Shown: positions 4,514-58,796 of the stretch, piece after piece | Numbering within the stretch: position 1 is the first letter of the stretch | How the letters are laid out: each line of letters begins with the position of its first letter | DNA from: a virus | Direction: 5' to 3' (one strand) | Virus record (IMG/VR): IMGVR_UViG_3300025018_000105 | Length of the DNA: 64,000 nt | Translations under genes and position numbers: made by a program | Notes under the pieces: model-generated | Told to the model about the DNA's origin: nothing | Seen by the model: the letters and a program-made list of their open reading frames with translations, nothing else | Database searches by the model: none

Positions 4514-4763
4514 GGCAGAAGAAGAGTTCGATCTGGATGTGCCTCTGCTAGATCAGGATGCGATCCTGACTGCAATGGTCGAGGCGGCTTATGGAGCGCC
4601 CAGTCCGATCGTCGAGATCATTTCCGTCGAAAGTGTGGGAAGCCCACAAGACCCTGTGATCAGGGCTGCTGGCATCGTCTCTGTTGGGGAAAACTCCTTC
4701 TACTTCGAGATCGAAGACGGTAGCTGGAACGGCACGGTCTTGCTTCATTGGGGAGCAAATTGA
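4506..4763 (+). CDS. acidic hypothetical protein
   Basis: ATG at 4506 (MSEAEEEF), in frame with the listed ORF. Confidence 0.6.
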   Translation: MSEAEEEFDLDVPLLDQDAILTAMVEAAYGAPSPIVEIISVESVGSPQDPVIRAAGIVSVGENSFYFEIEDGSWNGTVLLHWGAN

Positions 4764-4765
4764 GC

Positions 4766-4792
4766 TTGACACCAAGCGCAATTTTTATATAC
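4766..4792 (+). promoter_or_regulatory. sigma70-like promoter of the DNA polymerase operon, with GCGCAATTTTT in the spacer
   Basis: TTGACA-ccaagcgcaattttta-TATACA. Confidence 0.65.
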
Positions 4793-7952: not shown

Positions 7953-7994
7953 GCGCAATTTTTTCTTGACATTGTTGAGAAGATTGGTTAATAC
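7951..7994 (+). promoter_or_regulatory. promoter with upstream GCGCAATTTTT element
   Basis: aagcgcaattttttc-TTGACA-17 nt-TAATAC. Confidence 0.7.
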
Positions 7995-11348: not shown

Positions 11349-11405
11349 TTAAATTTGCATTAATGGTAATTTTTGCTTGACATTAACCTTACCATTGTGT
11401 AACAC
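11349..11405 (+). promoter_or_regulatory. full CtrA box (TTAA-N7-TTAA) upstream of a sigma70-like promoter
   Basis: TTAAatttgcaTTAA at 11349-11363; gtaatttttgc-TTGACA(11377)-17 nt-TAACAC. Confidence 0.6.
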
Positions 11406-23355: not shown

Positions 23356-25814
<2,459 letters not shown>

Positions 25815-28217: not shown

Positions 28218-28236
28218 TGTCAACCAAAAATTGCGG
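28218..28236 (-). promoter_or_regulatory. lysis-cassette promoter with upstream CCGCAATTTTT
   Basis: Reverse complement reads ccgcaatttttggTTGACA. Confidence 0.55.
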
Positions 28237-39520: not shown

Positions 39521-39560
39521 TGGCTACAGAAGATTGCGCCCGGTGTCAAGCGAAAATTAC
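39521..39560 (-). promoter_or_regulatory. tail-tip promoter carrying both upstream and spacer elements
   Basis: gtaattttcgc-TTGACA-ccgggcgcaatcttctg-TAGCCA. Confidence 0.65.
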
Positions 39561-47211: not shown

Positions 47212-47251
47212 ATGGTAAACGAATATGGTCAACTTGTCAAGCAAAAATTAC
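47212..47251 (-). promoter_or_regulatory. tail tube promoter
   Basis: gtaatttttgc-TTGACA-17 nt-TACCAT. Confidence 0.7.
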
Positions 47252-51442: not shown

Positions 51443-52228
51443 TTACTTCTTCGAAGCGCCCAGCTTGTTGGCCAGTTCGAGACGTTGCTGAGGGGACATC
51501 TCGGAAATCTGCTTGGCGGTGAAACCGCCAGTCTTCTCTTCCTTACCACCACCAGCACCGCCACCGGCGTTGCCTTTGAAATAGTGCGGTGCTTCGTCGC
51601 GGAGCTTTGCGAGCCATTCCGTAACAGTCATCGGGCTTCCGCCGTCAGCACCGTAAATCACGCTTTCGCCCTTCTTCGGAACCAACCCACCGTCTTCCAC
51701 GCGGAAGACTCGGTAGGCACGTTCGAGCACGTCCGGCAGGGCCTCAGTGCGAACGCCGCTTTCCGGAACGATGACCGCCGCAGTGACTTCCTTGTCGATA
51801 TGCGTGCGGTTCAGGCGCTCGGTCAGCGTCTTGGCTTCGTTTTCCTTTTCCGCCAGTTGACGGTGAAGGGCCTTGTTGTTGTCCTCGTAACCGTCCTTGA
51901 GCACCTTGAGGCGATCCTGAACGGCCTGTTCGATCTGGTCGTCGGTCTTGAGTTCGCCGTCCTTCACCCGCTGGGCAATGTCGCGAAGTTCCTTGACCTC
52001 GTTCGTGAAGTGGTCAAAGTCTTCACCGGCGATGTCCTTCACGCGAGCAAGCTGCGGCGTCATCGCTTCGACGGTCTTCGACAGTTCGATGTTCTTGTTG
52101 CGAAACTCTTCGAGCTTCTTGTTCGGAACGACATTGACGGAGACTTCTCCGGTTTCTTCGTTCGTCTGGGCAAACTCTTTCAGACCCTCCGGGACTGCTT
52201 CGAGATTTAGGAAATTGATTACTGGCAT
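51443..52228 (-). CDS. capsid scaffolding protein
   Basis: KLEEFR.KN, coiled coil, EWL..L...APH.F..N.GGGA. Confidence 0.75.
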   Translation of the reverse strand: MPVINFLNLEAVPEGLKEFAQTNEETGEVSVNVVPNKKLEEFRNKNIELSKTVEAMTPQLARVKDIAGEDFDHFTNEVKELRDIAQRVKDGELKTDDQIEQAVQDRLKVLKDGYEDNNKALHRQLAEKENEAKTLTERLNRTHIDKEVTAAVIVPESGVRTEALPDVLERAYRVFRVEDGGLVPKKGESVIYGADGGSPMTVTEWLAKLRDEAPHYFKGNAGGGAGGGKEEKTGGFTAKQISEMSPQQRLELANKLGASKK

Positions 52229-52438
52229 TGAAAAGTTCCTCACCGAGGGACGAAAAAACGTAGGAACACTACGACCTCCGGGACCCTCCCGGAGGATTTT
52301 CATTTTCCACTGCACGCGCTTGCGGACTGCGGTCGAAAACCATGGGGGAATGCTTATGCTGGTTCCCCCGGAACCTTATGTTGGAAAAGTTACCGAGAAC
52401 ACGACGTTGGACCCCAACGCAGTTCTATCGGAAAGATG
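52229..52438 (-). promoter_or_regulatory. ~210-nt structured 5' leader of the scaffold/capsid operon
   Basis: Hairpins at 52361-52375, 52275-52295 (9-bp perfect stem) and 52253-52273 (stem plus U6). Confidence 0.55.
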
Positions 52439-52444
52439 GCATAT

Positions 52445-52490
52445 AGTGTAATAGAAATTATGCTAACTGTCAAGCAAAAATTGCGCTTAA
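52445..52490 (-). promoter_or_regulatory. capsid operon promoter with upstream GCGCAATTTTT
   Basis: ttaagcgcaatttttgc-TTGACA-17 nt-TACACT. Confidence 0.75.
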
Positions 52491-52500
52491 CCGAAAAAAG

Positions 52501-52671
52501 TTACTTACGAGGTTTACGAATCGCCTTACCACGGCGGTGACGACCCATCTCTTCGCTGATCACCTTGTCCAGCGCGTCAGTGTCTTCGCTTCCATCAAAC
52601 TCATCCAGATCGTCGGCCCAAAGACGGTCCCTGATGCGTCGATCCAAATGAAGGTCGTATTCGTCAGACAT
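52501..52671 (-). CDS. 56-aa acidic/basic peptide (not in ORF track)
   Basis: TAATG coupling to the portal stop; MSDEYDLHLDRRIRDRLWADD...RHRRGKAIRKPRK. Confidence 0.6.
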   Translation of the reverse strand: MSDEYDLHLDRRIRDRLWADDLDEFDGSEDTDALDKVISEEMGRHRRGKAIRKPRK

Positions 52672-54434
52672 TATTCGGCTGGTGGCTTGTCTCGGGTCTG
52701 CGCTTGGCGGGCGGCGGCCGGGACAGGTGGGATGTCGGTGTCATCTGGATTGTTGCCTTGCGCCTGCTTCTCTTGCGACTTACGGTTGGCGGCGGCCTGT
52801 CTTTCCTTGGCCTTGATGTCCATTTCGTCGCGCTTGGTCTCATTATCGTCCAGATCGCGCTGGAGTTCATCCTGCCGCTGAGCACGCGAATCCGGGAAGC
52901 CTTCCTGACGGCTCTCGAAGTCCGGTTGGTTCGGGAACTGTGCTTCATCTTCGAGCATCTTCATGAAAATTTCCTTGGTGACGTATTCCGGAATAACGTC
53001 GGCCTTAAGGAAGTATTCGTAGATGATCTCGATCGGTAGAAGGTTCGCCTGATACATCATAGTGATGGCGCGGAACTCACGGGCGGCTGCCTGATCCAGT
53101 AGGAAGTCTTGGTTTACGCGGAACTCAAGGGCTTCGCTGGGCTCTTCGTTCAGCCACATCGACAAGATTTCAGCGAGTTCCGTAAAGTTCTCGTTGAGAA
53201 CCGTGGTGACATTCAAAAGCAGTGATTGCTCGTTGCGGTCTTTAAGCTTCACTTGGTTGTCGGACTGCCCGGCTGTGTTGGAGTCTCCGATAAGGCGACC
53301 GCCAAGTGATGCGACTTGTGTCTCTTTGTGTTCAAGCGCCTTTTCAAGGCTCTTGAGGCCTTGGCCGTTGAACTCGATGATACCGGCTTTTTCGTTAGTG
53401 CCAATTTCCCATACAACGCTCGGGCCGATGTGATATTCGTCATCTTCCGAACCACCGGTGACGTAGTAGACCGGGTTTGCCGTGTAGAAGCGCCCATGCT
53501 CAAGCTGAGCATAGGTCTTGTAGTGCGACATATTAAGCGTGAGAATGTCGAGGATCGGCGGCTTCTCGACCGACGAGAGGCGCGTCGTAGCGTTGAAAAA
53601 GCGGAAGGGGATACGGTCCATCGGCACGCCATAAACCATCGGAGTCGCAACGATTGGCTCTTCGGTCAGGTCAGCGTCTTGTCCCGGATTCTCGTAAAGC
53701 TCCTGCTGATAGACCATACGATCGAAATTTTCGTCCCAAACGAGACGCAGGATGCGATACTTGATGTAGAGGTGGCCGTAATTCGGGTTCGGCTTGGACT
53801 CGTTACCTTCGAACGTCACGATCCGACGGTCGGGCTCGAACTCTCGCAGGAGGATGAAGTCGAACTCGTCTCGGCCATCGATCTCGGCCGTGGACCAGTC
53901 AAGGATATTCTCACAGGTGTAACCTGCCAAATAGGGCCGCACAAACGGTCCATCATTAGCCGATTTGTCAACCAGAACGCCATAGCGACCTACCGACAGC
54001 ATTTCCTGTGCGACGACCTTAGAGAAGACGTTAAAGCTCAGTCCGTCCTTACTGGTGCGACGACTGATCTGCTTGAGGCGAGGCCCGGCGTTGAGCAAAC
54101 GGGCGTCACGACGAAAGATCGAGCCAGTCAGGCCCGTCACCGTCCGATACACCATGTTGTAGAAAACAGCGCGGTCAAGGTAGGCCGAGTATTGCTCTTC
54201 GTCCATACCTTCGGGCTGGGGGAGATACATTTTGCCGTGGCGCTTAATTTCGACTTCGCCGATCATAGCGTGGCGGATCGCAGTCCAGATTTCTCGCCAG
54301 TTGTTGTAGTCCCAGTTTGAGAACTGCGGCGCACGCTCAATAAGCTCTTGACGCGAGCGAAGTGAGGCATAGTGGGCTTGGCGGTTATGAAACCGCTTCA
54401 CTTGGCCTTTAGTCGGGGGAGTATAATCTGGCAT
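52671..54434 (-). CDS. portal protein (DUF4055 family)
   Basis: YLP......Y..YL.RAVFYN...RT..GL.G.IF; LAH/EHG.FYTANP; GGRL. Confidence 0.88.
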   Translation of the reverse strand: MPDYTPPTKGQVKRFHNRQAHYASLRSRQELIERAPQFSNWDYNNWREIWTAIRHAMIGEVEIKRHGKMYLPQPEGMDEEQYSAYLDRAVFYNMVYRTVTGLTGSIFRRDARLLNAGPRLKQISRRTSKDGLSFNVFSKVVAQEMLSVGRYGVLVDKSANDGPFVRPYLAGYTCENILDWSTAEIDGRDEFDFILLREFEPDRRIVTFEGNESKPNPNYGHLYIKYRILRLVWDENFDRMVYQQELYENPGQDADLTEEPIVATPMVYGVPMDRIPFRFFNATTRLSSVEKPPILDILTLNMSHYKTYAQLEHGRFYTANPVYYVTGGSEDDEYHIGPSVVWEIGTNEKAGIIEFNGQGLKSLEKALEHKETQVASLGGRLIGDSNTAGQSDNQVKLKDRNEQSLLLNVTTVLNENFTELAEILSMWLNEEPSEALEFRVNQDFLLDQAAAREFRAITMMYQANLLPIEIIYEYFLKADVIPEYVTKEIFMKMLEDEAQFPNQPDFESRQEGFPDSRAQRQDELQRDLDDNETKRDEMDIKAKERQAAANRKSQEKQAQGNNPDDTDIPPVPAAARQAQTRDKPPAE

Positions 54435-54442
54435 GTAATCTC

Positions 54443-54802
54443 TGAAAAGGCGGCCCCCGGTCCTTATGATACCGGGGGCCTAGTCGGAGGAGACAGGCTG
54501 ATGAAGGGGGCCACCCTATCTGAAACAATCCCCGCGCTTCGATTGGCACATGCGTCCTACCACGCGTGGGACGGGCTCACCCTCTAGGCCCCGCTGGGAC
54601 CGGGCTCGCCGGGACACCATCGCGACAGCTTTTTCTGTCCAGATTGACCGGCAATAAGTTTACCTGTCCCCGCCGTGCTCACTTCCGCTCTCCCCACTTT
54701 GGCAGCCGACCAAAGCCGCTACTCGCCGGGCCGTTGGAGTGAGTGGTCCACGTCGTTTACAGGATAACCACTGATCGATGATGCAAAAGGAATTTCAAGT
54801 TG
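54443..54802 (-). ncRNA. candidate ~360-nt structured RNA / regulatory leader upstream of the portal gene
   Basis: Own promoter; no credible ORF; many local and long-range helices; ends in a 10-bp GC hairpin plus CUUUU. Confidence 0.6.
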
Positions 54803-54808
54803 ATGTTA

Positions 54809-54853
54809 AAGCTAACACAAGACGTTAACTATGTCAAGCAAAAATTGCGCTTA
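54809..54853 (-). promoter_or_regulatory. promoter of the portal leader RNA
   Basis: gtaagcgcaatttttgc-TTGACA-17 nt-TAGCTT. Confidence 0.75.
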
Positions 54854-55390
54854 CTGATCTGATGATTTGCGGGGCTTGATACGCAGAGCCCGTTCGAGCC
54901 TCTGCCAGAACTTGAGCTTTTCGAGTATCGGGTTGAGCCAATCGGTCAGGATGCAGAAGTTCCTGTTCTGCGGGGGCTTGTGGTGAACCGCGTGGCTGCG
55001 GCCAGATTGGATGACGCCGGTCTTCTGAAACACCTCGATCCAGCCGCCTTGGCGCTTGTGCGTCCACAGGTGAACTTCATTCATCATCATCCCACCAAAC
55101 GTGGCGAAGAACCACACGACACTCGGACCGAAGAGCCACAACCAGATAACGCTGATCACCCCGGCCGCGATGAATGTCGTCGAGTTACGCGCCCAGAACG
55201 GTGTTTTAGTGAAGTCCATAGGATCGGTGTGGTGTAGGTCGTTTGGCTCCAGCACCCACTTGTCGATCCACCGGTTTGTCGGCTTACCGATGCGCTCCTC
55301 CCACCAATGCAAAAGCCCGCCGATGAAGTCGGCGAGAAGCCAGCCGCACAGGGCTTGTCCAATGAACGCGAAAAATGCAAAGCTGATCAT
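54851..55390 (-). CDS. TMEM189/CarF/FAD4-family lipid desaturase (Lipid_desat-like)
   Basis: ADFIGGLLHW, LHH, VHLWTH, Q..G......HAVHH, NFCILTDWLNPILE; TM segments; ATGA overlap with the upstream stop. Confidence 0.8.
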   Translation of the reverse strand: MISFAFFAFIGQALCGWLLADFIGGLLHWWEERIGKPTNRWIDKWVLEPNDLHHTDPMDFTKTPFWARNSTTFIAAGVISVIWLWLFGPSVVWFFATFGGMMMNEVHLWTHKRQGGWIEVFQKTGVIQSGRSHAVHHKPPQNRNFCILTDWLNPILEKLKFWQRLERALRIKPRKSSDQ

Positions 55391-55923
55391 CGTGCCTCGC
55401 TCCACTTATCAGCAAAGGTCAGGATGAACTTGCGGTGCTTGTTGAACTGTTCACGAGCGAACGGCTCTTCTTCCCGCATCTGGCGTGTGATCTCTTCGAT
55501 CGGAACACCCTTGAACTGAGGATAGAAGCGCAGCGAGCCTGCTTCGTCCGCTAGCTTCTTCTCGAAATCGGCGTTATAGAGTTCGACCGCAGCAATGACT
55601 TCGCTCATCTTCCCGCGATATTCCACCTCTTGTTTGATGGAAGCCGGGAGCAAAGCGCTGCCAGCCGCAAAAGCAAGCAAAGCGAAAGTCCACGCGATGC
55701 CCGTGTTGACCGGATCACCAGCCGCAAGCAATGAACCAACGCCGCCAATCGTGAAGAAATACGCGAGGCGGAAACCTAGCATGTAACGCCACTCGACAAA
55801 CTCCTGTAACAACGTAGCCAGCGGGTGAACAATCCGCGTGCGCCGGATCACAAGCCAAAACGCATTATGTGATGCGTAGGAACCCTTAGGCTCCTTTAAG
55901 AATACAGGAGGTCTGATAATCAT
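55387..55923 (-). CDS. membrane protein with two TM segments, hypothetical
   Basis: Hydrophobic hairpin in the centre; coupled to the desaturase. Confidence 0.65.
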   Translation of the reverse strand: MIIRPPVFLKEPKGSYASHNAFWLVIRRTRIVHPLATLLQEFVEWRYMLGFRLAYFFTIGGVGSLLAAGDPVNTGIAWTFALLAFAAGSALLPASIKQEVEYRGKMSEVIAAVELYNADFEKKLADEAGSLRFYPQFKGVPIEEITRQMREEEPFAREQFNKHRKFILTFADKWSEAR

Positions 55924-58195: not shown

Positions 58196-58332
58196 CGGTC
58201 TGTCTCCTTAATTCCGATGATTCGTTCATGTCAGAACGAAAGTGATTCGTCAAGCCACTTGTGCGGGGCTCAATTCTCAGGGGCATTCCGGGCCCTGCTA
58301 TGCCAGCAGAGCCCAGAGAAGCCCTTAGGGCG

Positions 58333-58605: not shown

Positions 58606-58796
58606 CGGTCTGTCTCCTTAATTCCGATGATTCTCTCCTGCCCGAGTTTAAGAGATTCATCAATCCCTAAAACATGGTTAATTTCTAGGCCGTTTTTGTT
58701 AACCATACTTGGTAGGCTCGCGTTAACCTTAACACCGTCTTTCCAAGTATAGTTAACGAAACGGCAGATTTTGTTAACCATAATTTTGCGTAGGAC

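Follow-up and report, generated by a model that had tools for sequence, protein, structure and literature searches.

A conserved structured RNA in front of the portal gene of CbK-like phages, a candidate attenuator-type leader

The gap upstream of the portal gene

What does a phage keep in several hundred nucleotides of non-coding DNA placed directly in front of its portal gene? The question is raised by a 64,000-nt stretch of viral DNA from the IMG/VR record IMGVR_UViG_3300025018_000105 (this whole stretch is called the window below), which was traced to aquifer metagenomes. On the minus strand, a gap of 416 nt (positions 54435-54850) separates a 184-amino-acid open reading frame (ORF; 54851-55405) from the portal gene (52671-54434), which was assigned to phrog_145 with an E-value of 8e-102. 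Following the order of the minus strand, a PhoH-like gene lies upstream of the gap, and the genes of the scaffold and major head proteins lie downstream of the portal gene. An initial annotation of the window had proposed that the gap encodes, on the same strand as the portal gene, a non-coding structured RNA located between a promoter and the portal gene and ending in a terminator-like element. Comparison with related phages upheld this proposal. The region is a real, conserved, non-coding structured RNA, found with covarying helices in about 16 distinct phage variants, with a length of about 350 nt in the window and of 260-440 nt in the relatives.

The nearest cultured relative of the window is the Erythrobacter phage vB_EliS-L02 (L02 below; L001 in our working labels, which number the loci compared), a 150-kb CbK-like siphovirus (PMC9127768). 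No similarity between the window and L02 was seen upstream of the promoter. It began exactly at the promoter element GCAATTTTTGCTTGACA and extended to the portal start, with an identity of 83-90% in the RNA region, as compared to 70-93% in the portal coding sequence and 71% in the upstream ORFs. The RNA region is therefore as conserved as the portal coding sequence or more, and well above the upstream ORFs.

A family of RNAs linked to the portal gene

Relatives were collected by their portal protein from IMG/VR, metagenomes, genomes and a phage collection. A homologous element was present upstream of the portal gene in every relative examined whose portal protein was at least 63% identical to that of the window. 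Between 56 and 62% identity it was present in L020, L021 and L050 and not in Citromicrobium phage RXM or L051, and at 44% or less (roseophages, phiCbK) no homologous upstream element was found. The cultured members are vB_EliS-L02 (Erythrobacter litoralis), XM05 (Erythrobacter sp. JL475) and Lacusarx (Sphingobium sp. IP1), and another member lies in a 144-kb contig of Sphingobium sp. MK2. The RNA family is specific to this vB_EliS-L02/XM05/Lacusarx clade of CbK-like phages infecting Erythrobacter and Sphingobium.

A covariance model, R1, was built from nine close variants. It spans the central and 3' domains, from the 3' strand of helix P1 to the invariant motif CUGUCUCCUCC, and P1, the 5' domain and the terminator were analysed separately. 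R1 recovered members that it had not seen, with scores of 142 bits for L057, 59 for L050, 38 for L016, 29 for L020, 24 for L021 and 23 for L011 (E-values from 1e-5 to 1e-42), each time as a single match per locus and always just 5' of the portal gene. In each of five complete genomes of 130-176 kb searched with R1, the RNA was single-copy. A divergent member, L015, was missed by the model, and the same motifs were recognised there by eye. No counterpart of the RNA was found by R1 in the sampled genomes of the host order, the only match being the phage-like contig of Sphingobium sp. MK2, with none in the other 150. The IMG/VR database was scanned with the pattern GTGGTAGG..TCGAAGC, which is unspecific; among the matches listed, R1 confirmed only one contig, already known. 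A second IMG/VR pattern scan gave no member beyond the portal-linked contigs.

The strongest evidence for a selected fold came from covariation. In the 15-sequence alignment made with R1, and thus fitted to the model, 94.2% of the cells were paired and 25 of the 30 base pairs showed double changes. The covariation score was 0.447, as compared to 0.157 in shuffled alignments (none of 500 reached the observed value) and to at most 0.106 when the pairing partners were slid. An unfitted MAFFT alignment of the close group gave 93.3% of paired cells versus at most 57% with slid partners, and seven double-change pairs versus 2.9 in shuffles. The folding energy itself was unexceptional, with a minimum free energy (MFE) z-score of -1.17 and 12 of 100 shuffled sequences folding as well, so that thermodynamics alone lends no support to the earlier description of the region as densely structured. 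The region stands beyond chance because covariation was seen, in helices other than those first listed.

A conserved small ORF was also sought. Open frames of 30-60 codons are present in the gap, as expected in GC-rich DNA, and none is conserved in position or phase across the relatives. The frames are shifted by indels of 1-2 nt and by hairpins of variable length, and the window has UAG and UGA codons where L005 and L006 have a frame led by AUG.

The gene located 5' of the RNA differs among the phages, being the 184-amino-acid ORF, a PhoH gene, small ORFs or, in L02, a 170-nt insertion. Despite these changes the junction between RNA and portal gene was unbroken in all variants. The insertion of L02 (L001, 2874-3045), about 170 nt long and of unrelated sequence, separates the upstream ORF from the promoter of the RNA, and the window does not have it. 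The two ORFs upstream of the RNA in the window (54851-55923, minus strand; 184 and 178 amino acids) had no PHROG match and occur in some relatives only (L001, L006 and L014).

No RNA run was listed among those containing the window itself. In a marine metatranscriptome, contigs of a relative, less than 90% identical to the window, covered 54633-54848 and 54300-54414. One of them extends 170 nt beyond the promoter; it is therefore uninformative on transcript ends and may be DNA. The sequence of this 170-nt extension is unlike that of the window.

Organization of the RNA

The RNA appears to be made of three parts: a variable 5' domain closed by helix P1, a conserved core consisting of Pa/Pb, P5, P6 and P8, and the CUGUCUCCUCC motif followed by the terminator. 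The elements of the locus are listed in the 5' to 3' direction of the minus strand.

54832-54848, minus strand: A/T-rich upstream element and -35 hexamer TTGACA (GCAATTTTTGCTTGACA; TTGACA at 54832-54837)
54809-54814, minus strand: -10-like hexamer TAGCTT, after a spacer of 17 nt
54776-54784, minus strand: 5' strand of P1, GCAUCAUCG, pairing with 54614-54622 in the MFE fold of the isolated domain
54623-54775, minus strand: variable 5' domain, with GACCAC at 54743-54748 and the hexaloop hairpin GCGGCU-UUGGUC-GGCUGC at 54702-54719
54614-54622, minus strand: 3' strand of P1, CGAUGGUGU, closing the 5' domain with 54776-54784
54574-54610, minus strand: Pa/Pb, an outer helix GGC..GCCC/GGGU..GCC with GA/GA mismatches, enclosing the triloop hairpin GGUCCC-AGC-GGGGCC
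54529-54571, minus strand: P5 (UCCC-CGCGU/GCGCG-GGGA), internal loop, and P6, a hairpin of variable length at 54545-54557
54513-54528, minus strand: conserved joining region UUGUUUCA...GGGUG
54496-54512, minus strand: P8 hairpin (GG-C/G-CC, loop with CAUC), from the pairs of R1 mapped to the window
54486-54496, minus strand: CUGUCUCCUCC motif, holding the anti-Shine-Dalgarno core CCUCC
54445-54480, minus strand: intrinsic-terminator-like element, a 10-bp GC hairpin (54452-54480), then GCC, then UUUU (54445-54448)
52671-54434, minus strand: portal gene, with its ATG at 54432-54434, 10 nt past the U-run, and no recognisable promoter in between

The 5' domain was as small as a 42-nt hairpin in L050 and reached about 170 nt. 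In the 13 variants with a P1 helix, the outer CAUC/GRUG pairs were conserved, and the inner pairs differed from lineage to lineage yet remained complementary, so that they covary. The stem of the hexaloop hairpin, which displays UUGGUC in the close group, also covaries (GUCC/GGAC, GCCC/GGGC, CGG/CCG, GAAGCU/GGCUUC). Over the whole 5' domain, RNAalifold counted double changes in 18 of 39 pairs, and its covariation term was close to zero.

Mapped to the window, the pairs of R1 fall at 54574-54610, 54529-54571 and 54496-54512. In the core, the two helices of Pa/Pb were 97% and 94% paired in the alignment made with R1 and had double changes in 12 of 13 pairs. P5 was 98.4% paired in the same alignment, with double changes in eight of nine pairs (for example CGCG/CGCG, UGUG/CGCA, CUGC/GCAG and GGAG/CUCC). 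Its internal loop was nearly invariant, with GGUA opposite AAUCGAA, the latter being (N)UCGAA across the variants; to judge from the motif only, it reads like a sarcin-ricin or loop-E element. P7, an optional hairpin that varies in length and can reach about 100 nt, occurs in the joining region of the relatives, and the window is without it. P8 covaried as GGCU/AGCC, GGUU/AACC, GGGCU/AGCCC and CCUUGA/UCAAGG. The CUGUCUCCUCC motif was identical in all but two variants of the close group and recognisable in the distant ones, and it can occupy the loop of a small stem, GUC-UCCUCC-GAC (54483-54494). RNAalifold proposed a pseudoknot, GAGAC/GUCUC together with CAC/GUG, both sides of which are invariant and hence give no covariation signal. 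The junction nucleotides of the core and its unpaired nucleotides were largely invariant across variants, which suggests that the core may bind something. With 25 of 30 pairs covarying and these junctions invariant, an aptamer-like conserved core lies directly upstream of the terminator.

The complementary segments from which the initial annotation had drawn its local helices are all present in the window, about where they had been placed. Their conservation was tested on a MAFFT alignment of limited quality in the 5' domain and the terminator, and most of these helices are kept in the relatives no better than chance. GUGGUU/GACCAC, GACAG/CUGUC and CGUCC/GGACG were paired in 52, 48 and 53% of the cells, respectively, and the last of them conflicts with the well-supported P5/P6. 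CUUUGG/CCAAAG was confined to the subgroup formed by the window, L001 and L019, in which it competes with the family-wide hexaloop hairpin. The case of CUCACU/AGUGAG was mixed, as it was paired in 55% of the cells only, and some double changes were seen in four of its five pairs.

Terminator and portal start

The final 10-bp hairpin (54452-54480) with its U-run about 10 nt before the portal ATG is present in the window as had been claimed. The segment containing the hairpin and the U-run has a predicted energy of -25.9 kcal/mol, and UUUU starts 3 nt beyond the stem. A GC-rich hairpin followed by four or five U was found in all 15 variants that were folded, with energies of -19 to -27 kcal/mol and the U-run 0-3 nt after the stem. 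The element thus has the two components of an intrinsic (Rho-independent) terminator. The stem sequences are essentially unrelated among the 15 variants, and the terminal hairpin is fully compensated between the window (GGCCCCCGG/CCGGGGGCC) and L02 (GGCCCUGACGG/CCGUCAGGGCC). The distance from the U-run to the portal start codon, 10 nt in the window, varied from 10 to 30 nt. Between the U-run and the portal gene no promoter was found, the sole promoter-like match being one that would start inside the gene; transcription of the portal gene would therefore have to pass through the RNA and its terminator.

In most relatives (L005, L006, L010, L012, L014, L050, L057 and others) the portal start codon is UUG or GUG. 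These starts have no clear Shine-Dalgarno sequence, and all that precedes them, at 9-13 nt and right behind the U-run, is a weak GGAAG or GAGA.

A different leader was found in RXM (L058, 1195-1435) and L051. It is shorter, about 240 nt, and has neither the core of R1 nor a U-run. A 5' hairpin starts with ACAUCUGG at the predicted transcript start, and the loops of later hairpins carry UUUCCUCUUCUCC and CGCUCCUCCCUG. Since it is without a U-run, this leader must be a 5' untranslated region (UTR) of the portal gene, and since the C/U-rich motif is present in this core-less leader, the motif would be older than the core.

Promoter and other leaders of the same class

The transcript is predicted to start at about 54801-54803, from the position of the promoter. 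In the relatives the -10-like hexamer is TAGGTT, TAGTGT or TATAAN at the same spacing. The initial annotation had described a clear promoter dedicated to the RNA. The promoter-like site is there; it is not dedicated, being one of nine copies in the window. These nine matches to the 17-nt element were obtained with at most three mismatches, compared to a mean of 0.2 in shuffled sequences, and they are distributed over both arms.

4755-4771, 7955-7971 and 11366-11382, plus strand: copies of the GCAATTTTTGCTTGACA promoter class in the left arm
25791-25807, 28218-28234, 39544-39560, 47235-47251, 52468-52484 and 54832-54848, minus strand: copies in the right arm

The nine copies precede replication, ligase, lysis-like and structural genes, and the leaders behind most of them are only 30-60 nt long. 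A long conserved leader ending in a hairpin and a U-run was found behind two of the nine, those located before the portal and scaffold genes, both of which are head genes.

The scaffold leader occupies 52229-52484 on the minus strand, with the same promoter class at 52468-52484. Its identity to the L02 sequence is 86%, and it can be recognised in L025, L019, L002, L012, L015 and XM05. It holds a perfect hairpin, CCUCCGGGA/UCCCGGAGG, and in its 3' part a short hairpin, CGUAG/CUACG, followed by U6, some 30 nt ahead of the ATG at 52227; the corresponding hairpin of L02, CGCAG/CUGUG, has compensatory changes. The scaffold protein probably starts at this ATG rather than at the GTG at 52315 retained by the ORF finder. 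At about 25740-25790 on the minus strand, directly after a promoter-like site and before a ligase-like ORF, a 12-bp hairpin, GGUCCGUCUCCU/AGGAGGCGGGCC, is followed by UUAU10. Its 5' strand also holds GUCUCC.

Comparison with known RNAs

The window was compared to the 4227 models of Rfam 15, which include riboswitches, T-box, pRNA, GOLLD, ROOL, 6S and cuckoo-type small RNAs (sRNAs), and no match reached the gathering score anywhere in it. ARAGORN found no tRNA or tmRNA gene in the window. The earlier statement that the region shows no tRNA, tmRNA or known riboswitch thus stands. The best sub-threshold match, obtained in E-value mode over 54300-54950, was to RF02278, with 21.3 bits (E = 0.076) for a gathering score of 50. 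It was limited to the last 50 nt, that is the CUGUCUCCUCC motif and the terminator, and the internal hairpin of the family was reduced to 1 nt.

The RNA resembles attenuator leaders and riboswitches in the succession of a promoter, a structured multi-helix core with invariant unpaired nucleotides, a terminator hairpin with U-run, and a gene. It differs from them in having no match to a riboswitch, T-box or leader family of Rfam and no conserved antiterminator among the pairings searched, and at about 350 nt it is larger than most. In phage lambda, the late promoter PR' gives rise to a 194-nt 6S transcript ending at tR', which is read through after modification of the polymerase by Q. Both systems have a constitutive-type promoter and a short terminated RNA before late morphogenesis genes, for which read-through would be needed. 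The lambda leader is not a conserved structured RNA, whereas here the fold is selected and a separate promoter serves the next head genes; neither a Q-like protein nor a binding element for Q was identified. GOLLD and ROOL are likewise long non-coding RNAs of phage genomes with a complex conserved fold. The present RNA does not match their Rfam models; it is smaller, tied to one gene, and ends at a terminator before the portal gene.

The cuckoo or alpha-r14 sRNAs (CcsR, NfeR1, SmrC14) consist of two to four simple adjacent hairpins, each with CCUCCUCCC in its loop (PMC4615179). They share with the present RNA a C/U-rich, anti-Shine-Dalgarno-like CCUCC motif in hairpin loops, freely covarying stems and alphaproteobacterial hosts (PMC4615179). 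Unlike them, the RNA has a single CUGUCUCCUCC beside a large core, on a stem of 3-4 bp at most, is encoded by phages at a fixed place upstream of the portal gene, and has no Rfam match. RF02278, the toxic small RNA of Betaproteobacteria (PMC4603805), shares the succession of UGUCUCCUC and a terminator hairpin. A full-length match, with UGUCUCCUC in 5', the internal hairpin, the terminator and at least 50 bits, was not obtained, and the host class and the genomic context differ. The initial annotation had also drawn an analogy with the pRNA of phage phi29, which is similarly a phage-encoded structured RNA of a few hundred nucleotides with a conceptual link to the portal, and which serves a packaging motor that has no small terminase. 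The analogy did not hold: no match in sequence or structure was found, Rfam included, L02 has both TerS and TerL annotated (PMC9127768), and the present RNA is physically a leader of the portal gene.

In the annotated records of L02 and XM05, the gap is left without any feature. A literature search gave no description of the RNA, and a term search gave no mention of it in the L02 paper (PMC9127768). The most fitting description is that of a new RNA family within a known general type, the structured leaders or attenuators of phages, with a role as sRNA as a possible addition.

Proposed function

We propose that the RNA is an attenuator-type leader limiting or regulating read-through into the portal gene, a reading that we regard as quite possible while short of probable. 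Transcription, termination and regulatory role are all deduced from the sequence. In this model, the RNA would be transcribed from a standard phage sigma-70-type promoter as the promoter-proximal leader of the portal gene. The strong, general promoter would yield mostly a discrete RNA of about 350 nt that stops at the terminator, and the polymerase would proceed into the portal gene only in a limited or regulated share of cases. The conserved core would set or sense the level of read-through by means of a putative bound factor. The portal protein is needed in low copy number, with 12 copies per head. If the portal gene is only reachable by reading through the terminator, the element would therefore work as an attenuator. 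It fits this reading that, of the nine promoters, only the portal and scaffold ones, both serving head genes, are followed by a long conserved leader with a hairpin and a U-run at its end, and that the shorter leader of RXM and L051, without U-run, would be a 5' UTR of the portal gene.

Several points weigh against it. The start site, the 3' end and the termination are all predicted, and the internal architecture of the 5' domain is only moderately supported. The U-run of the window and of L02 has just 4 nt and lies 3 nt off the stem, which is weak for a terminator; with a U-run this short and offset, the window copy was passed over by a simple terminator scan. In the 15 variants, neither the alignment test nor a duplex-energy search made on each sequence demonstrated a conserved antiterminator or any other alternative pairing. 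In this search, the segment forming the 3' strand of Pb was the first or second-best partner of the 5' strand of the terminator in nine of the 15 variants. This pairing has no compensatory change and is lost in six variants, and where it persists it may merely reflect the presence of GGCCCC-type strands in both hairpins. The strict synteny of RNA and portal gene could simply mirror the conserved gene order of phages. Finally, trans-acting sRNAs classically show this same layout, an invariant seed-like motif with a terminator behind it.

This last possibility, that the terminated RNA of about 350 nt is itself the product and that CUGUCUCCUCC blocks the translation of host or phage mRNAs by pairing with their ribosome-binding sites, is in our opinion rather unlikely. 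Portal read-through would then be a by-product, and the RNA could also have a dual role, compatible with attenuation. CUGUCUCCUCC is the most conserved element of the RNA amid stems that covary freely, and in many cases a small stem-loop, GUCU-CCUCCC-AGAC, exposes it immediately ahead of the terminator. The same arrangement, with CCUCC in a loop and a terminator behind it, is that of the cuckoo/alpha-r14 sRNAs (PMC4615179) and of RF02278 (PMC4603805), the sole sub-threshold Rfam match. Additional UCUCCC/CUCCUCC motifs occur in loops of distant members and of the RXM leader, and two ribosome-binding sites of early genes, TAAGGAGACAG (58200-58210 and 58610-58620, minus strand), are complementary over 9 nt to CUGUCUCCU of the RNA. 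Nevertheless, sites complementary to CUGUCUCCUCC show no enrichment in the window (17 as against 18.6 expected), a 350-nt molecule with a complex conserved core far exceeds what a seed carrier needs, and the motif of RXM and L051 lies in a terminator-less leader. A part of the motif, GUCUC, may in addition pair internally with the conserved GAGAC of the 5' domain, and a search of the other 150 sampled host-order genomes with R1 gave no counterpart. The next alternative is a cis-acting RNA of processive antitermination like put of phage HK022, which would bind the polymerase and make it resistant to the terminator of the leader itself and to later ones along the head and tail block. Such a role appears improbable. 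A promoter-proximal position at the head of a structural gene block, terminator-like hairpins before the next genes also, and highly conserved unpaired nucleotides, as expected of a protein-binding RNA, would suit it. The scaffold and capsid genes are driven by their own promoter 2 kb downstream, so that long-range antitermination is not required, and put, which is about five times smaller, bears no apparent resemblance to this RNA.

The riboswitch-like switch as first drawn seems hardly probable. It comprised two crossing 9-bp helices, in one of which GGGGCCUAG (54584-54592) would compete with the terminator for CUAGGCCCC (54475-54483), placing termination under the control of a ligand. Both pairings exist in the window, and the homologue of the Pb 3' strand ranks among the top two partners of the terminator 5' strand even in the distant L050. 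In the MAFFT alignment, which is poor in the terminator region, the two helices were paired in 60.5% of the cells versus 60.3% in shuffles, with no covariation or compensatory change. The GGGGCCUAG/CUAGGCCCC pairing is lost in L019, L025, L002, L016, L020 and L021; in L019, Pb changed to GAUCCC/GGGAUC and the terminator did not follow. The other crossing helix, GGGGACAGG/CCUGUCUCC, is found only in the window and L001. The conflict of CGUCC/GGACG with P5/P6 and the lack of a match to a riboswitch family in Rfam add to these difficulties. A free RNA binding the portal or the procapsid, as phi29 pRNA does in packaging and assembly, is very improbable: only the position beside the portal gene and the conserved fold speak for it, neither the pRNA family nor any other Rfam model matches, and a portal leader is the better explanation for an RNA whose end lies 10 nt ahead of the portal start. 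Packaging motors of the TerS/TerL type, the proteins encoded by the closest cultured relative, are not known to use an RNA. That the gap would be a small protein gene, or a GC-rich spacer with chance complementarity, can practically be discarded. It is true that several frames of 30-60 codons are open and that the MFE is unexceptional; no frame is open at homologous positions across the variants, and the substitutions are concentrated as compensatory pairs.

Coming back to the attenuator-type leader, a bolder version of it can be imagined, to which we would give a small chance. The core, with Pa/Pb, the GGUA/UCGAA loop of P5, P6, P8 and possibly the pseudoknot of GAGACCAC with the strands flanking P8, would be a new sensor RNA, reading the progress of the infection and setting both the read-through into the portal gene and the release of an RNA bearing an anti-Shine-Dalgarno motif. 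If true, the core would act as a riboswitch specific to phages or as a fold that binds a protein or the ribosome, with free portal, another head protein or a metabolite as examples of the signal, and head assembly would be coupled to the control of translation.

Significance

Phages rarely have long non-coding RNAs whose complex fold is supported by covariation, and a function is known for few of these. The present one is a candidate new RNA family for the databases, in a region that the current annotations of these genomes leave blank. It has a fixed place directly before the portal gene and a testable layout, with promoter, core, invariant motif, terminator and gene. Since three cultured phage-host pairs carry it, its function can be tested at the bench. 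The RNA probably controls how much portal protein is made, and it offers a first handle on the control of head-gene expression in CbK-like phages of Alphaproteobacteria.

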